Positions 3,499-59,557 of a DNA stretch of 64,000 nt are shown piece after piece. Source of the stretch: Candidatus Omnitrophota bacterium (GTDB taxonomy: Bacteria; Omnitrophota; Gorgyraeia; Duberdicusellales; 4484-171). Both the position numbers and the translations under genes were made by a program. The notes below the pieces were generated by a model. It was not told the origin of the DNA. It did not search any database and saw only the letters and a list, made by a program, of their open reading frames with translations. The DNA lies in the NCBI GenBank assembly GCA_037146775.1, contig JBAWWL010000003.1:133956-197955 (forward strand). The letters run 5' to 3'. Numbering within the stretch: the first letter of the stretch is position 1; each line of letters begins with the position of its first letter.

Positions 3499-3585
3499 GA
3501 ATTATCCCGCCGTAGTCGCTAATAATTCCCTACGGTAATTCTTAGCGTATCTGGCGAAGGCGGGATAACGTCAAATCCACCGACT

Positions 3586-3704
3586 TATAGTCGGTGGTGG
3601 GGCTCAAGGGGGCGAAGTTCCCATACCCTATGTTGTCCACCAACAAAGTTGGTGGCAGGTATTCAAAGATATTTGGGAGAAACCACCGAAGAATTCGGTG
3701 GTAA
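3586..3704. other. Three consecutive hairpins with near-identical 8-bp stems CCACCRAM / KTYGGTGG (unexplained structured region between convergent genes)
   Basis: The hairpins are 'ccaccgacttatagtcggtgg', 'ccaccaacaaagttggtgg' and 'ccaccgaagaattcggtgg'. Upstream at about 3512-3572 is a nested pseudoknot-like set of inverted repeats (cccgcc/ggcggg, ccgtag/ctacgg, cgctaa/ttagcg). No ORF lies here on either strand. Confidence 0.4.
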
Positions 3705-4285: not shown

Positions 4286-4444
4286 AATGAGAATTAAATA
4301 ATTAACGAATTAACTTATTTATAGCACTTATAAATAGTTTACGGTTATCGGCTACGTCACCCGCTTCGTCTGAACGGTTACGTTATTGGTCTTTATATAT
4401 AAGCCGTTACCGTTAAACGTAACCGATACGAGCATCGTAACCGG

Positions 4445-17810: not shown

Positions 17811-19661
17811 ATGGATAATAAAGACGTACAGTTTATCATTACCAACACCCCGCCTTTTAATAAACTAAAACCGGAGGAGCTCGCCCAGTTTATTGCTCTT
17901 TCCGAAGTCAAAGCATATAGAAATGGGGATATTATTTATCATAACGGAGATGCCGGAGAATATTTTTATTTTCTGTTGGCCGGCCGGGTAGCTATTCTCA
18001 ATAGCGATTATAGCCGGGATGCGGAAATAGAAACTTTAAAACGCGGTACCTGCTTTGGTATTATCTCCCTTTTTAACGATGAACCGCATTCGGTAACCGC
18101 CAAATCTACCGGCATCTCGTGGGTTCTCTTAGTTAAAAAAGATGCTTTCAAGGAATTCTTGCATGCCCACGCGATGCTTTCTCTTGAATTTTACCGGATT
18201 CTTTCGCAGCGTATACGTACAAGAGCCAAACCAAAAAAAATATTTCAATGTAAGCGCATAGCCGTGTTTGGATTCCCTTTGTCGGGCAAGACCACCTATG
18301 TGGTTCATCTGGGGCGTGAACTTATTGAGCAAACCAAAAAAAAGGTTATCTGTGTAGAATTTTCCTTAGAAAATAATTTCAGCCTTCCCGAGGTGCTCGG
18401 CAAAGAAGCTAAGCCGCTTGAACTGGAGGCATTTAGCGAAGAGCAGATCGAAGAACATATTGTACATGACAGCGTTGATGGCCTTTTGGTAAAGATAGTC
18501 AACGGAAGCAATATTCTTTCTTTATTAAATTGCCTTTATGAGCGGTATCACTTTATTGTCTACGAAATTCCTTCTGTGTTGGGCGATATGTATCTTTACG
18601 ATATGGTTGAACCGTGTGATTATTTGCATATTCTTCTTTCCGGTCACAACGAAGAGTTTACCGCTTTAGCGCATACTATCGCGGCGTTAAAAGAAAAAAG
18701 CCCGATTAACCAAGAAAAGATAAAGATTATCGTGAATGAGTCAGCCACAAAAGACATGTCTTCGCAGGAAATGGTACGTTTACTTCGGCATCCTCTCTAT
18801 GCTACCTTGCCTGTTCTCGCCAGCGATGACTATATCAAGATGATGCGCCGCATTGCGCGTCAAACGGCAGAGGTGGTGGTAGGTTTGGCGCTTGGTTCCG
18901 GAGCAGCCTACGGATTATCCCATATCGGAGTATTAAAGGTCCTTGAAGCGCACGAGATCCCCATTGATATCATCTGTGGCTCCAGTATTGGTGCGGTCAT
19001 CGCGAGCCTGTGGGCATGCGGTTACGCCGTGAGTGACATTGAAGCGATATGTAAAGATTTTGCCAAGCGTGGTAATCTTTTTTCCTTCTCTGGTATATCA
19101 TTTCCGTTTCGAGGCTTCTTTCGGATAAAACGTTTGGAGAAGGTGCTCAGAGATATTTTTAAAGATAGAACTTTTTACGACGTGAAACGAACCTTAAAAA
19201 TAGTGGCATTTGATTTCTATAAAAGAGAAACACGTGTGCTTGAAGAAGGACTCCTGTATAAAGCGCTGGCAGCCAGCTGTGCGATGCCCGGGATTTTTGA
19301 ACCCGTGCGGTTTAAAGAAGACATACTTTTAGACGGAGGTATTTTGAACCCGCTTCCTACGAAAGTGCTTCTCGGCTATGGGGTCAACAAGATAATCGCG
19401 GTCAACATCACGCCTTCAAAAGAGGAAATCTTTAATACTTACAGGAAAAAAAATAGTTTACACATTCTTGATTTCATTTTTGGCAGCATCGAAACTATGC
19501 AGGGGGAATTTGTCCAGCAGGCAATAAGCGTTGCGGATGTGGTCATTCATCCAAAACTTAACGGTTTAGGCTGGATGGAGTTTGATAAGATAGGGCCATT
19601 TATCCAGCGGGGAGAGGAAGCAGCAAGAGAAAAATTACAAGATATGAAGCGCTTATGCTAA
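17811..19661 (+). CDS. Cyclic-nucleotide-binding domain / degenerate P-loop domain / patatin-like phospholipase (NTE-like architecture)
   Basis: It has an N-terminal cNMP-binding fold ('YRNGDIIYHNGDAGEYFYFLLAGRVAIL...GTCFGIISLF'), a middle 'FGFPLSGKTT' deviant Walker-A-like segment, and a C-terminal patatin domain ('GLALGSGAAYGLSHIGVL...CGSSIGAVIASL' with GxSxG). Confidence 0.8.
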   Translation: MDNKDVQFIITNTPPFNKLKPEELAQFIALSEVKAYRNGDIIYHNGDAGEYFYFLLAGRVAILNSDYSRDAEIETLKRGTCFGIISLFNDEPHSVTAKSTGISWVLLVKKDAFKEFLHAHAMLSLEFYRILSQRIRTRAKPKKIFQCKRIAVFGFPLSGKTTYVVHLGRELIEQTKKKVICVEFSLENNFSLPEVLGKEAKPLELEAFSEEQIEEHIVHDSVDGLLVKIVNGSNILSLLNCLYERYHFIVYEIPSVLGDMYLYDMVEPCDYLHILLSGHNEEFTALAHTIAALKEKSPINQEKIKIIVNESATKDMSSQEMVRLLRHPLYATLPVLASDDYIKMMRRIARQTAEVVVGLALGSGAAYGLSHIGVLKVLEAHEIPIDIICGSSIGAVIASLWACGYAVSDIEAICKDFAKRGNLFSFSGISFPFRGFFRIKRLEKVLRDIFKDRTFYDVKRTLKIVAFDFYKRETRVLEEGLLYKALAASCAMPGIFEPVRFKEDILLDGGILNPLPTKVLLGYGVNKIIAVNITPSKEEIFNTYRKKNSLHILDFIFGSIETMQGEFVQQAISVADVVIHPKLNGLGWMEFDKIGPFIQRGEEAAREKLQDMKRLC

Positions 19662-23637: not shown

Positions 23638-25290
23638 ATGACAAATAAAAAGATATCTTTGCAACACGTAGCAATTTTGCTCATCTGTTCTTACGCATTA
23701 TTTGTACTGGGTAACGGTATCTTGGGCTTGACTAATGATAACGAAGTTTTTTATGCCCAAACCGCGAAAGAAATGATTCAGCAGAAAAGCTGGGCGACTC
23801 CCTATCTTTTTGGCCAGCCGCAGTTCGAAAAGCCGATTTTTACCTATTGGTTGCTACGAATTGGATTTTATCTCTTTGGAGTTTCTAGTTTTGGCGCGAG
23901 ATTCTTTCCTGCGCTGTTTGCTATTATTGGAGTCATAGCGGTTTATTTCTTAGGCTTGATCGGTTTTAAAGATGAGAAGAAAGCATTTCTCTCCGGTTTG
24001 ATCCTGATGTCTTCGGCTATGTATATTGGTTTGGGGAAAACGGTTTTTACCGACATGTTTTTCTCGGTGTTGATACTTTTGGCCTTGTTATTTTTCTTTT
24101 GGGGTTATAGCGATCAGCGCAAGAAAATGCTTGGGTTTATCTCTTTCGCCGTTTTTTCCGGCCTGGCGGTATTAACAAAAGGCCCCTTAGGGCTGATTAT
24201 CCCCGTGATTACGGTCGGTCTATTTCTATTATGCAAAAAAGATATTAAATTCTTGTTTTGCAAACATTTTATATTGAGTTTTTTTGTTTTCTTTTTGGTT
24301 GCCGGACCGTGGTATCTCTTGATGATTGCCAAATACGGAAATAATTTCATCCAAGAATTTATTTACAACGTCAATACCCGCAGGCTGGTTGAGGCGCAGC
24401 ATGTTTCCAACGATACCTGGTATTTTTATCCCCTTACTGTCATTACCAGCATGTTTCCCTGGAGTTTGTTTATCGCGGCCGCATTATTTTTTCTTCCTCG
24501 TTCTACCGTAAGAAAAGATAATCCTTTCTATCTTTTTTTAACCTGCTGGGCCGGGACTATTTTTTTGCTTTTTCAGCTTGCGCACTCCAAAGTCGCTAAC
24601 TACATTTTCCCTATATTTCCGGCCGTTGCCATACTTGTAGGCGGTTTTATCGTCGATATGTTAGCCGACAACAAACATAGGCGTTTACTCTTGTTTCTTT
24701 GCGGTGGTACATTATTTGTGATTCTACTTTTTCCGATAGGCTTTACGGTCAGTTTTAATATCTTCAAGGCATATATCGTATATAAATTGCCGGTTTACTC
24801 CTTAATTGTCGGGTTTGTCATATTAAGCGCGCTCATGCTTTTTTTCATGATCCGTAAGCGCATGCAAAACTTGGTATACGCTTTGGTGGCGGTTATGCCG
24901 ATTTTTTTAATTAATTTACCGCTGTTACATAAAAACTTCGAGGCCTATGTGTCTTCCAGGGCGGCTTGCGAATATTTACTCAAAAACTATCAAGTGGATA
25001 ACACTATTCTTTGTTCTAAGTTCTTTGTGCGCGGTATAAAATATTATACCGATAAAGATGTAGTTATAATTAATATCGGAGGAAAACCTTTTTTCAGTCG
25101 GCACGCGCTGCGTGCGTTAGATTCCCGGGAAAAAGTAAAGGATTTTTTATATACACAAGGCGTTACTTACTGCATCCTCAGTAAATCTTCCCTAAAAACC
25201 ATCAAGGATATCATTCCCGAAAAAAACATTACCGTACTCACACTTGCCGGAAATGAATACGTGGTGAAGGTAGAACTGCCTCGCAGCTAA
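23638..25290 (+). CDS. GT-C glycosyltransferase, ArnT/PMT family (GT83/GT39-like)
   Basis: It has about 12 TM helices, an early 'DNEVFYAQTAKEM' (DE-type) loop motif, and a C-terminal soluble domain. It is 550 aa. Confidence 0.8.
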   Translation: MTNKKISLQHVAILLICSYALFVLGNGILGLTNDNEVFYAQTAKEMIQQKSWATPYLFGQPQFEKPIFTYWLLRIGFYLFGVSSFGARFFPALFAIIGVIAVYFLGLIGFKDEKKAFLSGLILMSSAMYIGLGKTVFTDMFFSVLILLALLFFFWGYSDQRKKMLGFISFAVFSGLAVLTKGPLGLIIPVITVGLFLLCKKDIKFLFCKHFILSFFVFFLVAGPWYLLMIAKYGNNFIQEFIYNVNTRRLVEAQHVSNDTWYFYPLTVITSMFPWSLFIAAALFFLPRSTVRKDNPFYLFLTCWAGTIFLLFQLAHSKVANYIFPIFPAVAILVGGFIVDMLADNKHRRLLLFLCGGTLFVILLFPIGFTVSFNIFKAYIVYKLPVYSLIVGFVILSALMLFFMIRKRMQNLVYALVAVMPIFLINLPLLHKNFEAYVSSRAACEYLLKNYQVDNTILCSKFFVRGIKYYTDKDVVIINIGGKPFFSRHALRALDSREKVKDFLYTQGVTYCILSKSSLKTIKDIIPEKNITVLTLAGNEYVVKVELPRS

Positions 25291-25420
25291 GCCCAGCTCC
25301 GCTTTCCATGAGAATGGTCACGCCTTGTGGCTACAGCTACTCGCTGCGTTTCCGCTTTTGGTGAGCCTCGTCTTCGGCGGGAAACTTTGTCGAAGCGGGC
25401 GAACCCCCCTTTTACTTATT

Positions 25421-25565
25421 AAACCCGAAACACTAAACCCTAAATCCTAAATAAACTCAAAACGAAAAAATAAAAATTCAAAACGATACTATTTTGAGTT
25501 TGAAATATTTAAGTTTTTGGTTGTTTGTTTGTTTAGGATTTAGGGTTTGAGGTTTAGAGTTTATG
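25421..25565. repeat. Long AT-rich inverted repeat (about 60-nt arms) between convergent genes; bidirectional terminator-like
   Basis: 'aaaccctaaatcctaaataaactcaaaa' ... 'ttttgagttt...tttaggatttagggttt'. The arms are exact reverse complements over 17 nt or more. It is preceded by a short GC-rich segment at 25291-25400. Confidence 0.6.
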
Positions 25566-34414: not shown

Positions 34415-36079
34415 ATGAACGGAGCACGAATACTCATTGAGTCGCTTTTAAAAGAAAAGGTAGAGGTAATGTTTGGTTATCCTGGCGGCCAGGTTTTGCC
34501 AATTTTTGACGCGTTATACGATGCTCCGATCAGGTTTATCTTGACGCGCCACGAACAAGCTGCAGCCCACGCTGCCGATGGTTACGCCCGGGCAACGGGT
34601 AAAGTGGGTGTGTGCCTTGCGACGAGTGGCCCTGGCGCGACTAATTTGACCACAGGCATCGCTACCGCCTACATGGATTCTATCCCGATGGTCGCTATTA
34701 CCGGCCAGGTGAAGACGTTTTTGATCGGTAACGACGCTTTTCAGGAAGCAGATGTTACCGGTATTACCCGGCCTATAACGAAACACAATTATTTAGTTAA
34801 AGATATAAAAGATTTGGCGCGTATTATACAGGAAGCTTTTCATATTGCTTCTACCGGCAGGCCCGGCCCGGTATTAATCGATATCCCCAGTGATATCCAA
34901 CAGCAGAACTATGAATTTATTTGGCCGGAGGAAGTTAATATTAAAGGCTATAAACCAACATATTTCGGCCATCCCGGACAAATCAAAAGAGCGGCAAAAT
35001 TAATCGTTCAGGCAAAAAGGCCTATTATTTATGCCGGTGGAGGGGTTATCACTTCCGGTGCCCATCGGGAATTAAAAATATTGGCAGAAAAGATAAAGGC
35101 TCCGGTGACCATGACCTTGATGGGTTTGGGAGGATTTCCCGGTACCCACGAACTTTCTTTGGGAATGCTCGGTATGCACGGCACCGCATATGCCAACCAC
35201 GCTATTATGGAGTCAGACTTGATCATTGCCGTCGGCGCGCGTTTTGACGACAGGGTTACCGGACGGCTTGACGCTTTTGCGAAAGGCGCAAAGATAATAC
35301 ATATTGACGTTGATCCGTCGTCAATCAGCAAAAATGTCGGTGCGGAAATTCCGGTCGTCGGCGACGCGAGAAATATTTTAGGCCAGTTGCTAGAAGAAAT
35401 AAAAAAAGTTCCCGATACAAAAGAATGGCTTAAGACTATAGAAGGCTGGAAGAAAAAATATCCTCTCTCTTATAAAGATAAAACGAAAATCAGCCCCCAA
35501 TATGTCATGGAACAAATTTATAGTATAACTGCCGGTGACGCTATTATAGCCACCGAGGTCGGACAACATCAAATGTGGGCAGCGCAATGGTACAAATATC
35601 TTTATCCGCGCACGTTTATTTCCAGCGGCGGATTGGGCACTATGGGGTTTGGTTTTCCCGCAGCCATGGGTGCGAAGATTGCTTTTCCCGAAAAATTGGT
35701 TTTTGATATTGCCGGCGATGGCTCTATTCAGATGAACATACAGGAGTTGGCTACCTGTGTGTGTAATAAGATAAACGTGAAGGTAATTATATTTAATAAT
35801 GGTTATTTAGGCATGGTGCGGCAGTGGCAGGAATTGTTTTATAAAAAGCGCTATTCTCATGTGTGTATTACCGCGCCAGATTTTGTGAAGTTGGCGCAAA
35901 GCTACGGTGCCGAAGGAATCCGCATTACTAAAAAAGAAGAAGTGCGCAAAGCTTTGGAGAAAGCCATGAGTATAGATAACACGGTGTTTGTCGATATTCA
36001 GGTTGAGCCGGAAGAGAATGTATTTCCGATGGTTCCGGCAGGAGAAGCTATCAACCGGTTCATCGGCGGGTTGGCCTAG
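34415..36079 (+). CDS. ilvB: Acetolactate synthase large subunit
   Basis: It has TPP motifs '[14 protein letters not shown]' and '[14 protein letters not shown]'. It is 554 aa. Confidence 0.9.
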
Positions 36080-51545: not shown

Positions 51546-53705
51546 ATGTTCCAGCGATTGATATATACTGGTCGATATGTGTGCTTCTTTGTGTGCAGCA
51601 TGATGGGTATCTCTCCCGCGTTTAGTCAAGTATCCAGCGTGACGGTACCTATCCAGGAGGACACTATGGTTAGAGATATCCAGCGTACCATCGCTGTTTT
51701 ATCCAACACTCACACGCATCTTTCGCCAAGCCATGTTGGGCATCCAGGTTATGGAGATCTTGCTTTTCTCTACGATAAAGCCGTGGACGCACTTGTTTTA
51801 AAGGCAGGAGGATATCAAAAAGAAGCCCAAGCCATTCTTGATTATTTTGCAGCCCGCCTGAAGATTCCTTTCGAGGAAATACGTATGCATGCTGATACGA
51901 ATGATACTTACGGAATTATAAAGATTTTTTCTCCATTTTCAGCCTCCGGCATGCCCACCAAAGCATTAATGAATGCTTTGGATATTACCTCAAACCGCAG
52001 GCAGGGGAAAGCTACCCTTGAATTTTTTACCACACCTGGACCGACCTCATTTCTTATCTTTGCTTTTCTTCAGGTCAACCCAGATATTTATAAAAACGAG
52101 GCGCTGCTGCTAGGAGAGGTTTTACTGGCGATGCAAAACGCAGACGGAGGTATCCGGGATGGTGACCGGTCGCCGGAGAAGGTTCATACCGAACCGCACA
52201 TGGATAGTTATGCCGCATTCATGATGCTGTATCAAATAAGCGGGGATAGTAAATGGGAAATAGCCGCTCATAGAGCTCTTGAGTGGTTTAACGCAAACGT
52301 GTATCATCCCAATGAGGCGGCAATCGATCAAGGTGTGTGGGCACACGCTCCTAATCAGGCGTTTGCTACCGACGCCTACTCCTGGACTATGGCCGGCCCC
52401 TTGGGTGACACGATTTCTCCCGAGATGCTTAAGCGTTTGAGCGAGCGGATGCTTGAAGAGAGTTTAACAAAAATCACCCTTCCGGTTCCTGACGGTACCG
52501 TAAGAACTGTAACGCTCTGTGATTTTAGTAACCCTGAAAGCCAGGTCGTAAAAAATATACGCCAGGGATTCCATCCGATGGGTTCGGTAGAATGGACTGC
52601 GGGGGTAATTCTTGCCCTGCAAAAGAACGCGGTGAGGTTTTGGAATACCGGCGATCGCAAGGCCGCCAGTTTCTATAAAGCCATTGCTCAGATACTTTCT
52701 GGCGAAACAAAAAAATGTTTTTATCGGCTCGATAATACATATATGACATTTTATGCCACAGGCCAGGGTGTCTGCGTTGGCCCTTTCGGTTCAATCTCGG
52801 GGGTAAGTATAGAGGGTTGGAAGACGCCATTTTTCTATGTAAAAAGTAAAGATAACCAGGTGCTGATAAAGGGTGGGAGTTGCGTGGGCGCCTGGATCAT
52901 CCTGCCACATCTTGGCTTCAACCCGTTTATTCTCAATGACCGGTACCATGAAACGTACGGGAAAATACCGCTGACACAAGAAACAACGGATCAGGCTAAA
53001 ATATTTGTAGATAAAATCGCAAGCAAACGTTTTTTTACCGAGGGTGTTATCCGCGAAGCGCCCAGCCCCGACAGCCAGATCGTCGAGCCGGCTTTGTTTA
53101 ATGAAAAAATGTGGGATGCCTTAGAAAAAGGATATGCTCAGCGTACAAGAGGTGATTACGTAAAGGCAGAAATATATTTTCAAAAAGCAGCTTTTTGGGC
53201 ACATAAGGTTGTGGATAATTCGGCTTGGTGCCAGCGCGCGCGGGCCGACAATGCACAGAAAGAAAAAGAAATCGGCGGTATTGTTTCATATCCGTGGGGC
53301 GCTGTCTATCGAGATAATGATCACCCGTTGCATTATGCGGTATTGAGATACCCTTTATTAAACGAAGTTGCTGCTGCGATGTGGGCTTTGGCCACGGTTA
53401 ATTTCGAGCTAGGCCATCCGGAAGAAACAAAATATTGGATTCGGCGTATCATCGATGAGGTTTCTCTGCATCAGATCGCGGATATTAAAAAAGACGGCCA
53501 ACAGGAGGCGCCTGATTTAATCCAGGGATATTGGAATGCGCTTGTTTCTTGGGAAGATAACCCTGGTGGATACGAGCGGGACAAGAAAATCGGCGTGCTT
53601 TATCGGGAAGTATTGCGGGAGAAAAAACTTTCTGGTGCCAAGCCAAAAACAGTAATAGTTCCTGATTTTGTCACAAGAGCCCCCGGGGTTGGGGATCGGC
53701 AGTAA
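51546..53705 (+). CDS. Large hypothetical secreted protein, possibly alpha/alpha-toroid fold
   Basis: It has a signal peptide and repeated helical 'LL.GE.LLAMQNADGGIRDG'-type segments. It is 719 aa and the fold guess is weak. Confidence 0.45.
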   Translation: MFQRLIYTGRYVCFFVCSMMGISPAFSQVSSVTVPIQEDTMVRDIQRTIAVLSNTHTHLSPSHVGHPGYGDLAFLYDKAVDALVLKAGGYQKEAQAILDYFAARLKIPFEEIRMHADTNDTYGIIKIFSPFSASGMPTKALMNALDITSNRRQGKATLEFFTTPGPTSFLIFAFLQVNPDIYKNEALLLGEVLLAMQNADGGIRDGDRSPEKVHTEPHMDSYAAFMMLYQISGDSKWEIAAHRALEWFNANVYHPNEAAIDQGVWAHAPNQAFATDAYSWTMAGPLGDTISPEMLKRLSERMLEESLTKITLPVPDGTVRTVTLCDFSNPESQVVKNIRQGFHPMGSVEWTAGVILALQKNAVRFWNTGDRKAASFYKAIAQILSGETKKCFYRLDNTYMTFYATGQGVCVGPFGSISGVSIEGWKTPFFYVKSKDNQVLIKGGSCVGAWIILPHLGFNPFILNDRYHETYGKIPLTQETTDQAKIFVDKIASKRFFTEGVIREAPSPDSQIVEPALFNEKMWDALEKGYAQRTRGDYVKAEIYFQKAAFWAHKVVDNSAWCQRARADNAQKEKEIGGIVSYPWGAVYRDNDHPLHYAVLRYPLLNEVAAAMWALATVNFELGHPEETKYWIRRIIDEVSLHQIADIKKDGQQEAPDLIQGYWNALVSWEDNPGGYERDKKIGVLYREVLREKKLSGAKPKTVIVPDFVTRAPGVGDRQ

Positions 53706-53754
53706 ACTTAAAAATGATTTGACAGAGATATCTCAGATGGTACATTGACAATTG

Positions 53755-54120
53755 ATGAGCGAGCGTCGGAAGAATATACGGATACATAAATCCCTGATTG
53801 TACGTTTCAAACTTCCCAAGGGTTATCTGGGTATGTCTTCGCGCAGCGACAATATCAGCGAAGACGGAATGCGTATGGGTGCCTTGCAACGGTTTGAGCC
53901 GGGAATGTCTTTGCAGCTAAATTTTAATCTGCAGGAGTATACGGACCCCGTTATCGTTAATGCAACGGTGGTATGGGTGGATTACAAAAAACAAAGTTAT
54001 TTTCCATTTGTCTTAGGTTTACGGTTTATTAATCTCGCTGATTCCGATCGCCCTCGCTTACGTGATTATATTAGCCATGTCGTTAGAGAAGAAAACCTTT
54101 CTATCTCTCCTGGCGCCTAG
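53755..54120 (+). CDS. PilZ-domain protein (c-di-GMP receptor-like)
   Basis: It has 'RRKNIR' (RxxxR) and 'NISEDG' ((D/N)xSxxG) motifs. It is 121 aa. Confidence 0.65.
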   Translation: MSERRKNIRIHKSLIVRFKLPKGYLGMSSRSDNISEDGMRMGALQRFEPGMSLQLNFNLQEYTDPVIVNATVVWVDYKKQSYFPFVLGLRFINLADSDRPRLRDYISHVVREENLSISPGA

Positions 54121-54134
54121 CGATTTTTCTATTC

Positions 54135-54165
54135 TCGTAAGACCTTCTTGAGCCGTTATGTACCC
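54135..54165 (+). terminator. Perfect 10-bp hairpin after the PilZ gene, followed by a second inverted repeat at 54185-54230
   Basis: 'cgttatgtac-ccag-gtacataacg', then 'tttaaaccg...cggtttaaa'. Confidence 0.45.
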
Positions 54166-54479
54166 AGGTACATAACGAAGCCTGATTTTTAAACCGATCG
54201 TCAGGTGTCTCAATAGCGGTTTAAAAATAAAACCCTATCTTTAGTGTTGACCGCGCTTGGCCCGCGTATTATTATAATTTATAACGGTAAAATTGATTTA
54301 GAACCGATTGTCTCAGTTAAGAGGCAGCAATATTTAAGAGAGTAGAATTTTTATGTACGGTGTTATTTTTTAGTCTTTATTGCGAAAAGTATTTTCTTAT
54401 CAGTTTGACGGTTTAGCTTAAGAGGGCTTATTTACAAGGTTCTGCGGGCATAATATAATACCGTTAAGGGGAGGTAGTA

Positions 54480-54968
54480 ATGAAGAGCGAACGGCTACAA
54501 TATTTAATTAATGAATACAGACTTGTCCAAAAACGCTTATATGAGATCAGGGCTGATTATGAGCGTATGAAAATAACGTTTGAGATTCTTAAAGAGGTTG
54601 AGAAAGAGTTAGGTGAACGCGCGAAGCACGCATCTGATGGCGCAACCGGACAGTATTGGATGGACATTGCCGCCGGGTGTTTTACGGGTGATCAAGACCG
54701 GCCCAACGAAGCGGATTTTAATAAAGCAAAAGAAAAAGTAGAGAAGAACGAGAAATTAATTCTTTACTATGAAACAAAGCTAAATATGATTCGTAGGTTC
54801 TTAGGTGTCCGCGAGACAGACCTGTTTGAAAGCTTTCAGGAGAAAAACATTCTTATGGGAAGTGAGCAGTCTTCTTCGACGAATATGCGCAATGTTCTTC
54901 AGAAAACAGAAGAAGAAGACAAGCTTCGAGATGAACGCAAGAACGACGTTAATTTTAACAAAATGTAA
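54480..54968 (+). CDS. Hypothetical coiled-coil protein
   Basis: Its RBS is 'aaggggagg'. It is helical and charged, with no family match. Confidence 0.4.
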   Translation: MKSERLQYLINEYRLVQKRLYEIRADYERMKITFEILKEVEKELGERAKHASDGATGQYWMDIAAGCFTGDQDRPNEADFNKAKEKVEKNEKLILYYETKLNMIRRFLGVRETDLFESFQEKNILMGSEQSSSTNMRNVLQKTEEEDKLRDERKNDVNFNKM

Positions 54969-54981
54969 GCTTGGGGAGGCC

Positions 54982-55317
54982 ATGGCTATCGAAAGGCATC
55001 TCACGAAAAAGTATCGGTTTCGGCATGTCGGATGTGCACGCGTGTTGTCATTTATTGTTCTGTTATTGTTCTTACATTCGACCATGCAAGTTTATGCTGT
55101 TACTATTCCCGCCGCCTTAGAAAAACTCGGGTTTACCGAAGATGATCTTTTGAATTATCGCCGTCAGGATGAGCAAGAGTTTTTTACTTTTTCCGATAAA
55201 CGGACTCGCGAGAGGCAGGACGTTATTACTTTTGTAATCGAAAATGGTGAAATTATTGCCTATCCGAACCCGATGGTCGAGAAGAAAGAGGATAAACGCG
55301 ATAGCCTAGATATGTAA
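54982..55317 (+). CDS. Small hypothetical secreted protein, paralog A (EFFTF...ITFVIENG family)
   Basis: Its RBS is 'ggggagg'. It has a signal/TM 'VLSFIVLLLFLHS' and 'LEKLGFTEDDLL...EFFTFSDKRTRERQDVITFVIENGEII'. It is paralogous to the 57575 gene. Confidence 0.5.
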   Translation: MAIERHLTKKYRFRHVGCARVLSFIVLLLFLHSTMQVYAVTIPAALEKLGFTEDDLLNYRRQDEQEFFTFSDKRTRERQDVITFVIENGEIIAYPNPMVEKKEDKRDSLDM

Positions 55318-55497
55318 AAAAGCACTCCCTTAATGCAAGCGTATTATAGCTGCCAAAACGATCTTCGTCCGTTTTCCCATAAAACCTGCGGTGTTATTTG
55401 AGGTTTTTGTCTATCATCCATTCGGTTTTAATGGAGTAGGCAGGTACAAAAAACTTTATAATATTGGAAAAAAATAAGAGGCTATTTTTGAGCAGGA

Positions 55498-55725
55498 TTA
55501 TCTTTCGTCGGTAGCCTCATCGACAGACTGACCTTTTTTAAGCGGGGATCCTTCCTGGAGCGTATTTTCTTTTTCGTAGGTTTGGCAACTTTTAGAAGCG
55601 AACGAGAGAACGGCGAGTAACACAATTACAAGGATTATTACAAAGAAATAAGGGTATATCGTTACGTTTTTAATTTTCATATACCAGATTATATCAAACA
55701 TACATTTTTTGTCAAAATATATCAA
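55498..55725 (-). CDS. Small hypothetical membrane protein (doubtful)
   Basis: It is the only ORF in a 550-bp gap. It has one TM 'YPYFFVIILVIVLLAVLSF'. Confidence 0.3.
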   Translation of the reverse strand: MIYFDKKCMFDIIWYMKIKNVTIYPYFFVIILVIVLLAVLSFASKSCQTYEKENTLQEGSPLKKGQSVDEATDER

Positions 55726-55888
55726 TTTTATGACTGCGCGGTACCTGGCAGGGCGGCAGTTTATTAAACTGCTATAATTTTAATAAGGGGAATGGTATAA
55801 TTAAAAAGTACGTACATGATAATCACGATTTCATTATTAAACTACAGCGTCTTTAATTTTATTCTTGGCCGAAACGATTATTTTTAAA

Positions 55889-56314
55889 ATGAGTTTATTA
55901 AAAAAAATAGCATGGTTGGTTCTGGGGGTAATTTTTGTCCCGCTGGCTATGTTCCTGCTTTTACTGATAGTGCGTACTTTTTTCCCCACGCTGCGGTATG
56001 CGGCAGAACAGGTATTTTTGGTAATATGGATCGGTGTGCTAAGCGCTACAATTCTTTTAGCAATAATTGTTAGGAAGAAAAAAGAATCGTTTTCAAACGG
56101 ATTATTGGTTTCGGCAGCCATCGCCCTCATCGTAAGTTTCGTGGCCTTGCTTTTGCATGTATACAATTATACAAAACTGAATTATCTAAAAGTGGAGAAT
56201 GAGAGTCTTATGTTAAAAACTAAAAGTCTAAAAGAAGAAATATCCGGCTACAAGAAAAGAATTAAAGAATACGAAGAAAATTCTGACTTGCGAAGAAAGC
56301 TTCCGGGTGATTGA
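55889..56314 (+). CDS. Hypothetical two-TM membrane protein with C-terminal coiled-coil
   Basis: It has hydrophobic segments followed by 'LKVENESLMLKTKSLKEEISGYKKRIKEYEE'. Confidence 0.4.
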   Translation: MSLLKKIAWLVLGVIFVPLAMFLLLLIVRTFFPTLRYAAEQVFLVIWIGVLSATILLAIIVRKKKESFSNGLLVSAAIALIVSFVALLLHVYNYTKLNYLKVENESLMLKTKSLKEEISGYKKRIKEYEENSDLRRKLPGD

Positions 56315-56532
56315 GGTCTTTGGCCGGGTGAGCGATGCATTCTTGATGCGTTCGTTGGTGCGTTCCTTCGGCAGGCTCAGGACGCTCAAGTAATGTCGGA
56401 GCGAAACCACGCCTTTTAAGGCGCGAAACATACGCTCGCCGCTTGGTATGGTTTCGGCTATGGCTCAGCCAAGTGCCCAGTCTCCCGTGCAAACCCCTGG
56501 ATTAAAACTTGGGGAAAGTCGAATGGGTTGAT

Positions 56533-56567
56533 TTTTCTTTCTTGACCAATCTTTACTATGGCAGTAT
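56533..56567 (+). promoter_or_regulatory. Sigma70-like promoter TTGACC-17-TATTAT, copy 1 of a duplicated promoter
   Basis: 'cttgaccaatctttactatggcagtattatttttt' is near-identical in its 3' half to 58998-59032. Confidence 0.4.
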
Positions 56568-56707
56568 TATTTTTTCGATCGCTTACGAAAACAGATCGGT
56601 AGGAAAATTTTATATCAGTCAGGTATGATCCGGACGGCGGTTTTATAATTCTTGAAAATAAGCTTCTATAGGAGTAATTTCTTCTAACTTTTAAGGAGGG
56701 TATTGCG

Positions 56708-57019
56708 ATGAGAAAAGCCAAAATTTTAGGTTCATTGGCCGTGATTATGTTGTTTTGTCCGCTCGTCATTTTTGCCCAAAGTTCCGGAGAAAAAAATGAG
56801 CCTGTGATGGGGGATGTTAAAAAAGACAAGCAGATAGAGAAAGAACGTATGATTGGTATGGCGATGAATATGTTGGGGATGATGCAAAAACAAATAGTCG
56901 CTACCGGTGACGGCGGAGCTATTGTTTTATTGGGTAATAAACTTCTCAAATATGATAAAGATTTAAACCTTATAAAGGTAGTTGAATTAAAGGCCGACGT
57001 TGCGCCTGTGCAGAAATGA
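56708..57019 (+). CDS. Small hypothetical secreted Met-rich protein
   Basis: Its RBS is 'aaggaggg'. It has a signal peptide and 'MIGMAMNMLGMMQKQ'. Confidence 0.4.
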   Translation: MRKAKILGSLAVIMLFCPLVIFAQSSGEKNEPVMGDVKKDKQIEKERMIGMAMNMLGMMQKQIVATGDGGAIVLLGNKLLKYDKDLNLIKVVELKADVAPVQK

Positions 57020-57158
57020 TGAAAACCAAAGCCGAAATTAGGCAAAAGGAAAAAAGAGTAATATTGGCTCTTTCTGCAGAAGGTTTTGATGGGTCTGCAA
57101 CCAGATTAAGACAATGCTCGCAGGGCGAGGTTATTTTTTAGCCATGGAGGTAGCCGAC

Positions 57159-57578
57159 ATGAAAACCTTTTTACTCGCAGGATTATTTTTCTTCATCAGT
57201 TTCGTGTGTTTTGCAAAAGATATTCCTGCGAAAGAATACTACCATCGCGGCGGAACTTACATAAAACCAACCTATCGTTCTAATTCCGAAGGGGATGCGC
57301 CCCGTAGCCGTAGCAGGCCGAGTTATCAACAACAAAAAGCATATCAAACCTTGCCGGTCACGCCTGCTTATAAGAGCGATTATGATAATGATGTGCTTAC
57401 CGAAAAGGACGAGAAAGAAGAGGATGATAGTACAAACGAAGATAGTGTGGGTGATGACAGAGATTCTTATCCTTACGGCACGCATAGATCTTATAGGTAT
57501 AGAGAATCAAAGGATAAGAGTAATACGATCGGCAGTTTTTCTGATAGCAACGATACCGAAACTAAACAAAAGGAATGA
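57159..57578 (+). CDS. Hypothetical secreted acidic low-complexity protein
   Basis: It has a signal peptide followed by Ser/Asp/Glu/Tyr/Arg-rich sequence. Confidence 0.35.
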   Translation: MKTFLLAGLFFFISFVCFAKDIPAKEYYHRGGTYIKPTYRSNSEGDAPRSRSRPSYQQQKAYQTLPVTPAYKSDYDNDVLTEKDEKEEDDSTNEDSVGDDRDSYPYGTHRSYRYRESKDKSNTIGSFSDSNDTETKQKE

Positions 57579-57859
57579 GGAAGTTTTTATTGCTGCTAAT
57601 CTTCATTTTTCTTCCTTTTTTTTCGGTATTCGCCCAAAAGATACCCGATAGACTGCGCATACCGAAAGAATTGGAAGAGTTAGGATTTACCCGTTCCTTT
57701 CTTGTTGAATACAAAAAGATTGCCGATAAAGAATTCTTTACTTTTGATAATTGGAGAACAGCGCAAGGCCTGGACACTATAACTTTTGTGATTGAAAATG
57801 GTAAGGTGAAAGATGTATTCAAAGGTAAGAGAATAAAATTAAAGGAGAGAGGCACATGA
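57575..57859 (+). CDS. Small hypothetical secreted protein, paralog B (EFFTF...ITFVIENG family)
   Basis: It has a signal peptide and 'LEELGFTRSFLV...EFFTFDNWRTAQGLDTITFVIENGKV'. Confidence 0.5.
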   Translation: MRKFLLLLIFIFLPFFSVFAQKIPDRLRIPKELEELGFTRSFLVEYKKIADKEFFTFDNWRTAQGLDTITFVIENGKVKDVFKGKRIKLKERGT

Positions 57860-58997: not shown

Positions 58998-59032
58998 GCT
59001 CTTGACGCATGTATGGTATAGCAGTATTATTT
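58998..59032 (+). promoter_or_regulatory. Sigma70-like promoter TTGACG-17-TATTAT, copy 2 of a duplicated promoter
   Basis: 'cttgacgcatgtatggtatagcagtattatttttt'. Confidence 0.4.
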
Positions 59033-59176: not shown

Positions 59177-59557
59177 ATGGAAAACAGAAGAAAATTTCCC
59201 AGAGTTAACACGGCTAAAATGATGGTTAGTTGGAGGAAGGTTAAAGCCTACGACAATTTGAATGAAACAAAAGATATCTCTGGAGGGGGTATTTGTTTGA
59301 TGGTTGACGGCGAAGGCTTGGTGAGTGTCGGAGACATATTACAACTCGAATTTAGCTTACCTTTGGGAAAAACCATTTATTCAAAAGGAAAAGCGGTGTG
59401 GCTGGACAAATTTACTATCATAGGTGACCTGAAGGAGGAAACGCGCTATGAGGTAGGAGTAGAATTCTTAGATATCAACGATAAAGACAGAGCAGCAATT
59501 GAACAATTTGTTTTTTTGCACTTGCCTTTGAACAAAAAAACAACTCAACAAATATGA
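59177..59557 (+). CDS. PilZ-domain protein
   Basis: It has 'RRKFPR' and 'DISGGG' motifs. It is 126 aa. Confidence 0.6.
   Translation: MENRRKFPRVNTAKMMVSWRKVKAYDNLNETKDISGGGICLMVDGEGLVSVGDILQLEFSLPLGKTIYSKGKAVWLDKFTIIGDLKEETRYEVGVEFLDINDKDRAAIEQFVFLHLPLNKKTTQQI

Follow-up and report, generated by a model that had tools for sequence, protein, structure and literature searches.

A lineage-specific GC-rich island between two genes of a small-protein cluster in an Omnitrophota bacterium

Within the 64,000 nt of Candidatus Omnitrophota DNA analysed here (the window), a short intergenic stretch differs sharply in composition from everything around it, is present in this lineage but absent from the relatives sampled, and carries no RNA-family, structural, coding or repeat signal. 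The most plausible explanation, to which we would assign a probability of roughly 0.55, takes this island to be a relic without function, peculiar to this lineage, at the junction of an indel or rearrangement in a gene cluster of fast turnover. The junction would then have captured filler or foreign DNA, or else the island would be a decayed leftover that has become unrecognisable. Its visible effects are passive: it donates the last 11 codons and the stop to the upstream ORF and, together with a conserved promoter and leader, separates two genes that overlap in a related genome, the downstream gene having its own promoter here. We infer both that the island lacks a function and that its origin is foreign or relic. 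If this explanation is correct, the island is a routine case of spacers being turned over in a cluster of small orphan proteins that evolves fast, in a poorly studied phylum. A gene pair that overlaps in one lineage and is split by about 390 nt with a conserved promoter in another would point to operon architecture that is being rewired. The case also carries a caution, namely that an island of high GC content without ORFs is insufficient to call an RNA gene when the genome as a whole has about 42% GC.

Composition and boundaries of the island

The host DNA is ordinary chromosome, in which the window encodes ilvB, leuA, a branching enzyme, and TPR and PilZ proteins. The island belongs to a cluster of 38% GC whose genes encode small secreted or membrane proteins, mostly orphans, and the cluster genes around the island have 35-40% GC compared with about 57% in the island itself. 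Its two neighbours, separated by a 393-nt spacer, are listed with the other features of the locus in Table 1. The upstream 149-aa protein belongs to a family with only two members among 5.8 billion proteins, and all members of the downstream 103-aa family that carry a source name come from Omnitrophota/Omnitrophica.

GC content at 56300-56499 is 0.575, which is at the 99.9th percentile of 200-nt windows across the 64 kb (mean 0.420, sd 0.046), and the maximum over 150 nt is 0.587, where crudely chosen non-coding segments of 150 nt have 0.39 +/- 0.06. In a 50-nt profile GC climbs from 0.30 at 56250 to 0.56 at 56300 and sinks again from 0.52 at 56475 to 0.30 at 56525, so that the edges, near 56295 and 56520, are sharp and enclose a GC-rich stretch of about 230 nt. 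The shift exceeds the usual local variance and is statistically unusual for the window. The initial annotation, made from the letters alone, had described about 200 nt as markedly GC-richer than the flanks, and this is borne out, with the strings it quoted found where it placed them; that the contrast might be normal local variation, which it had named as a possible refutation, is not borne out. Peaks of at least 0.55 occur at three other places (18816-19048, 34454-34784 and 52263-52462), all three of them inside long ORFs, one of which is ilvB, and the island is the sole such peak outside long ORFs when the 64-kb window is read in 200-nt windows.

The second-ranking non-coding peak reaches 0.547, at 25291. 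There a non-coding GC-rich part of about 120 nt (0.55-0.58) lies directly 3' of the stop codon of an ArnT-like gene (23638-25290) and is followed, within 25291-25560, by an AT-rich region; a long inverted repeat, aaaccctaaatcctaaa ... tttaggatttagggttt, lies in the same interval, between convergent genes. The GC-rich stretch at 25291-25560 has no sequence similarity to the island at 56281-56530.

The ORFs that touch the island are, as first described, all short, overlapping and implausible, those of 76, 67 and 30 aa being on the minus strand and one of 39 aa on the plus strand. The complementary GCGAAAC/GTTTCGG blocks noticed at the outset were recovered by a repeat search, as CGAAACCA at 56402-56409 and TGGTTTCG at 56449-56456, along with a direct repeat, GG[A/C]GCGAAAC, at 56398 and 56420. 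The sigma70-like promoter reported to follow the island at 56533 does exist, but its true site is 9 nt further to the right.

Table 1. Features of the island and its flanks, in window coordinates
Feature	Position	Strand	Remarks
Upstream ORF, 149 aa, membrane and coiled-coil orphan, WCI77_03830	55865-56314	+	last 11 codons and stop (56281-56314) from island-side DNA
Lineage-specific segment	~56281-56530	.	no counterpart in L002 or L003; GC-rich core ~56296-56520, 55-58% GC
Predicted hairpin 1, irregular stem of ~15 bp	56342-56390	+	-17.4 kcal/mol, z = -0.68, no better than shuffles
Predicted hairpin 2, GCGAAACCA/TGGTTTCGG blocks	56400-56459	+	-23.1 kcal/mol, z = -2.11, 4/200 shuffles as good
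AT-rich promoter and leader of downstream gene	56531-56707	+	missing in L002; promoter part kept in L003
Sigma-70-like promoter TTGACC-17-TATTAT	56542-56570	+	L003 version TTGACC-17-TATCAT
Shine-Dalgarno AAGGAGGG of downstream gene	56693-56700	+	AGGAGG-type kin before the start in L002, L005-L007 and L009
Downstream ORF, 103 aa, small secreted protein, WCI77_03835	56708-57019	+	74-member protein family

Comparison with related loci

A search with a 719-aa protein as anchor retrieved a single contig from the JGI metagenomes, 5016 bp in length (L002); the same anchor found nothing in GTDB. L002, the one relative with this gene order, is collinear with the window from 51716 to 57247 in seven aligned blocks of 68-80% nucleotide identity (about 75% in the main blocks), and it carries homologues of the 719-aa protein, of a PilZ protein, of the 162-aa and 164/128-aa proteins and of a minus-strand small ORF, together with homologues of both genes that border the spacer, the upstream one being 139 aa long with 47% identity to the 149-aa ORF and the downstream one having 62% identity to the 103-aa ORF. 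In L002 these last two genes overlap by 4 nt (ATGA, 4374-4377) and are presumably translationally coupled. The 393-nt spacer is entirely missing from that contig: homology stops at 56280, the offset of the alignment shifts by 403 nt, the window having about that many extra bases from 56280 to 56769, and no island-like sequence was found anywhere in the 5016 bp of L002. The C-termini of the upstream proteins diverge after a common '...YEE', with SDLRRKLPGD* in the window and HNSNQEGQ* in L002, and so the 149-aa ORF draws its last 11 codons and its stop from window-specific DNA. Indels are frequent in the neighbouring spacers, where the offsets between the window and L002 amount to +45, +114 and +49 nt, and a large spacer indel therefore fits the habit of the region.

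The second informative relative is a Logan contig (SRR22387928; L003) in which a PilZ gene and then 361 nt of AT-rich spacer precede the orthologue of the 103-aa gene. Window positions 56531-56575 match L003 414-458 with 80% identity over 45 nt (E ~1e-5 to 4e-6), and the L003 spacer contains no GC-rich island, its GC content being at most 0.37 throughout. The right edge of the island can be set at about 56530 because the promoter homology with L003 begins at 56531 and L003 has no island upstream of it. The L003 Shine-Dalgarno is AAGGGAGG. Eight further loci with members of the 103-aa family (L004-L011) also have no island, and their upstream genes and spacers differ again, L004 having an additional 83-aa gene directly upstream of its 103-aa homologue; nor does a second copy of the island occur among any of the relative loci fetched. 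A resemblance between the L005 leader GGGATGGTTTCGCTAAAGG and the island's GGTATGGTTTCGGCTATGG was rejected as chance (E = 1.4). Judged from these alignments, the 393-nt spacer is composite: its right part, 56531-56707, with promoter, leader and Shine-Dalgarno, is native to the downstream gene, and its left part, 56281-56530, is the island, which is in no sampled relative. Nor is the island a conserved 3' UTR of the upstream gene, an outcome that the initial annotation had named as fatal to its own reading.

The informative relatives are two only, L002 and L003, and both are distant, at about 62% amino-acid identity for the shared gene, a comparison that leaves room for a young RNA confined to the window's lineage. 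That gene puts the three genomes at equal distances from one another (62%, 62% and 61% amino-acid identity), and gene order places the window with L002, these two supplying the only members of the 149-aa family. Since the promoter is common to the window and L003, the simplest history, as far as these sequences allow one to be drawn, would be that the promoter-bearing stretch of the spacer, if not more of it, disappeared from L002; the island may either have gone with that stretch or have been acquired later in the lineage of the window. A microhomology deletion in L002 between GAAAAT repeats at 56276 and 56655 was considered and rejected, having no support beyond the Shine-Dalgarno, and beyond that element 585 of 2000 shuffles align as well with the right side of the spacer as the L002 tail does.

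It might be asked whether the island is an assembly artefact in the form of a chimeric insert, given that the genome was assembled from a metagenome and that the composition of the insert is foreign to it. Its sequence is, however, 100% identical in Logan SRR12676968, in NCBI GCA_964613555.1 and in the NCBI MAG with WCI77 tags, three assemblies from different pipelines; both flanks are syntenic with L002, which makes the segment internal to a correctly joined contig; and the right-hand extra DNA, with the promoter, is independently confirmed in L003. Because the same DNA recurs without a difference in these assemblies, an artefact is unlikely, and on all these grounds we consider it very improbable indeed.

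Two other features came to light in these comparisons. In L009, at 2338-2455, upstream of a 98-aa homologue of the 103-aa gene, a perfect 12-bp inverted repeat, gattacacagat / atctgtgtaatc, surrounds a CAGCC-UUCG-GCUG hairpin; this other lineage has at the equivalent position a GC-rich structured spacer element of its own, different from the island. On the other side of the 103-aa gene, a 41-aa ORF (57016-57141), called as a gene in public assemblies, shares an ATGA overlap with the stop of the 103-aa gene and runs up to a terminator-like hairpin, CTCGCAGGGCGAG, with a T-run after it (57117-57139); alignment with L002 resumes only at window position 57143, and the stretch of the 41-aa ORF is accordingly without a detectable match in L002.

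RNA, protein and mobile-DNA explanations

A structured RNA was one of the two interpretations originally proposed for the island. No family emerged from the Rfam scan. The 4227 models of Rfam 15, which cover 6S, SRP, RNase P, tmRNA, riboswitches, ribozymes, group I and group II introns and HEARO, gave no match anywhere in the window at gathering thresholds, and a search at E<=10 with lax filters over stretches of 651 nt and 251 nt produced chance matches only, to models of human lncRNA and insect miRNA (E 0.29-5.4). ARAGORN found neither tRNA nor tmRNA in the whole window. Compared with dinucleotide shuffles, the minimum free energy of 226 nt gave z = -0.46 on the plus strand and -0.74 on the minus strand, that of a 169-nt core gave -1.31 and -0.75, and the island folded as DNA gave -1.05. 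In the predicted fold, 56314-56478 forms a closed three-helix shape. Among four sub-hairpins only hairpin 2 has a mildly low z, insignificant given the approximately eight folds tried, and an irregular hairpin at 56479-56533, before the U-rich tract, has -14.8 kcal/mol and z = +0.34. A terminator scan of 56300-56540 found none, a compact GC-rich hairpin abutting a U-run being absent, and no promoter-like site for a separate island transcript was found on either strand. L002, L003 and L004-L011 hold no homologous island sequence from which an alignment showing conservation and compensatory changes could be built. A search of the literature for noncoding RNA in Omnitrophota found no paper. The structured-RNA interpretation is thus left with no Rfam match, no tRNA or tmRNA, no significant fold z and no conservation in the nearest relatives, and the island is probably not a working RNA gene.

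The resemblance to known RNA genes is nevertheless instructive. GC-rich islands are said to have flagged noncoding RNA genes in AT-rich genomes in the compositional screens of Klein, Misulovin and Eddy in 2002 and of Schattner in 2002. An ORF-free stretch of about 200 nt, with GC well over that of the flanks and with sharp boundaries, is the very signal of such screens. The host here, however, is only moderately AT-rich (42% GC), the island belongs to no Rfam family and shows no excess stability, and it is missing in the nearest relatives, whereas the RNA genes that such screens bring up are conserved. There is likewise a partial likeness to an intrinsic terminator or structured 3' UTR, in that the island starts at the upstream stop and ends at a U-rich tract, TTGATTTTTCTTTCTT (56527-56542), but no compact GC-rich hairpin stands at the U-tract and the candidate hairpin has the stability of shuffled sequence.

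Nothing in the island points to a protein. GC by codon position is flat (0.59, 0.53 and 0.54), with no periodicity, and stops occur in all six frames at about the rate of chance, for which the calculated expectation is about 2.7 stops per 75 codons. Ten six-frame peptides from the island gave no Pfam match and no meaningful NCBIfam match, and when 1283 ORF peptides, taken from the window and from the relatives' loci L002-L006, were run against the island by tblastn, the best score was about 20 bits, which is insignificant after correction. The 76-aa minus-strand ORF (56265-56492) was examined as a zinc-finger protein and dismissed as a false positive, its Cys ligands being missing. HMMER against 1.84 billion representative proteins matched it to eukaryotic C2H2 zinc-finger arrays only (E = 2e-10), with scores inflated by repeats, as the sum of 5-16 weak repeated stretches; the ORF resembles a C2H2 linker and helix (GTWLSHSRNHTKRRAYV vs GHLKSHQRTHTGERPYV). 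Two independent sets of gene calls place no gene in the island. PGAP locus tags are numbered in steps of 5, and because the tags of the flanking genes, WCI77_03830 and WCI77_03835, are consecutive, the spacer carries no NCBI annotation of a gene, a pseudogene or an RNA.

With regard to mobile or imported DNA, comparing the island by self-BLAST with the window and a further 17 kb of flanking sequence (81 kb) brought up no second copy, and a repeat search with 6-nt seeds for terminal inverted repeats or a target-site duplication found only short AT-rich chance pairs near the boundaries. A blastn search in 'distant' mode of 72,556 plasmids and 50,697 phage records gave no match to the island. Three exact seeds had no match among viral contigs, and an 18-mer seed had 13 matches in 596 Gb of GTDB genomes, with about 17 expected by chance and none extending past 18-23 nt; exact seeds are, it should be said, insensitive in both searches. 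Integron attC sites are imperfect palindromes of 57-141 nt bounded by an inverse core, RYYYAAC, and a core, GTTRRRY. By inspection the GCGAAAC/GTTTCGG blocks do not fit this consensus, and the cluster holds a single such island.

Small non-autonomous insertion elements include MITEs, Correia, ERIC and RUP elements and the IS200/605-derived PATEs. The island is like them in several respects, such elements being 200-400 nt long, intergenic, present or absent between relatives, and able to alter the expression of a neighbour; it is unlike them in lacking terminal inverted repeats, a target-site duplication and a notable subterminal hairpin pair, and in being single-copy in 81 kb, with no copy in the collections searched. 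A further comparison is with intergenic indel relics and with filler DNA at rearrangement junctions. Like these, the island is lineage-specific, has no detectable function and lies in a cluster of orphan small proteins where gene order and spacers vary in all relatives sampled and other spacers carry indels, although its GC content is unusually high for filler derived from the host.

How, then, should the alternatives be weighed against the relic explanation? An origin as a MITE-like or IS-derived fragment, or as a horizontal scrap from a GC-richer genome, would account for the presence and absence between relatives and for a composition foreign to the host. The size is typical of MITEs, and a weak, imperfect terminal complementarity exists between CTTTGGC..TGAGC at 56316-56331 and GCTCAGCCAAG at 56461-56473, which is the closing stem of the predicted fold. 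Terminal inverted repeats and a target-site duplication are not convincing, however, the island is single-copy in 81 kb, plasmids, phages and viral seeds gave no match, and the GTDB seed stayed at chance level, so that this origin seems unlikely. The proposal, made from the sequence at the start, of an acquired fragment or gene remnant fits the pattern of presence and absence with respect to L002 and L003 and is in that part supported, but neither a donor nor translated similarity was found for it. That a native protein gene once stood between the two genes and decayed, or that the upstream protein had a longer C-terminus, would be in keeping with the fast gene turnover of the cluster, with the extra 83-aa gene that L004 has at this spot and with the orphan status of the neighbours; a GC content of about 57% is nonetheless far above the 35-40% of the cluster genes, codon-position signal is absent, stop density is that of chance, and Pfam, NCBIfam and local tblastn give no similarity, and we regard such a gene as quite improbable.

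The island could also be a young, lineage-specific RNA element, either a small RNA, independent or derived from the 3' UTR, or a cis-acting structured 3' end, which could stabilise or terminate the upstream transcript and insulate it from the downstream promoter. It is GC-rich, ORF-free and sharp-edged, it runs from the upstream stop codon to just before the U-rich tract and the next promoter, and it has the predicted three-helix fold over 56314-56478 with the hairpin at 56400-56459 (z = -2.1). Yet Rfam is blank at E<=10, overall z values of -0.5 to -1.3 are insignificant, the terminal hairpin has z = +0.34 and goes with neither a match in the terminator scan nor a promoter of the island's own, and the element is missing from L002 and L003; a young RNA is accordingly doubtful. 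The more specific proposition of an orphan structured RNA in no described family, which arrived or arose recently in the lineage and serves as a small RNA or as an insulator splitting a coupled gene pair, strikes us as something of a long shot. Two points do weigh against regarding the island as a relic. Its GC content, 15-20 points over the flanks, and its sharp edges are what would be expected of a structured RNA or a recent import, and the predicted hairpin at 56400-56459 folds somewhat better than its shuffles. None of the rival explanations, for all that, has positive evidence beyond composition.

Promoters and other elements of the cluster

A sister of the promoter of the 103-aa gene, TTGACG-17-TATTAT, lies at 59002-59030 and has in common with it a block, GCAGTATTATTTTTT. 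The two belong to an extended design, TTGAC[C/G], a 17-nt spacer ending in GCAG, and TATTAT followed by TTTTT, which is seen at 56542-56570, at 59002-59030 and in L003 at 425-458, and which in the window stands upstream of both the 103-aa gene and a PilZ gene (~59177) of the cluster. Judging by these motifs, the recurrence suggests that the small-protein cluster uses a common type of strong promoter.

PilZ genes flank the small-protein cluster on both sides, at 53752-54120 and ~59177-59557. Paralogous small secreted proteins with the motif EFFTF...ITFV(I/V)ENGE recur in the cluster and in relatives, at 54805-55317 and 57575-57859 in the window and at 10-306 in L004. Elsewhere in the window, a single intergenic region (3578-3703) contains three hairpins of one design, CCACC, 9-11 nt and GGTGG, namely ccaccgacttatagtcggtgg, ccaccaacaaagttggtgg and ccaccgaagaattcggtgg.
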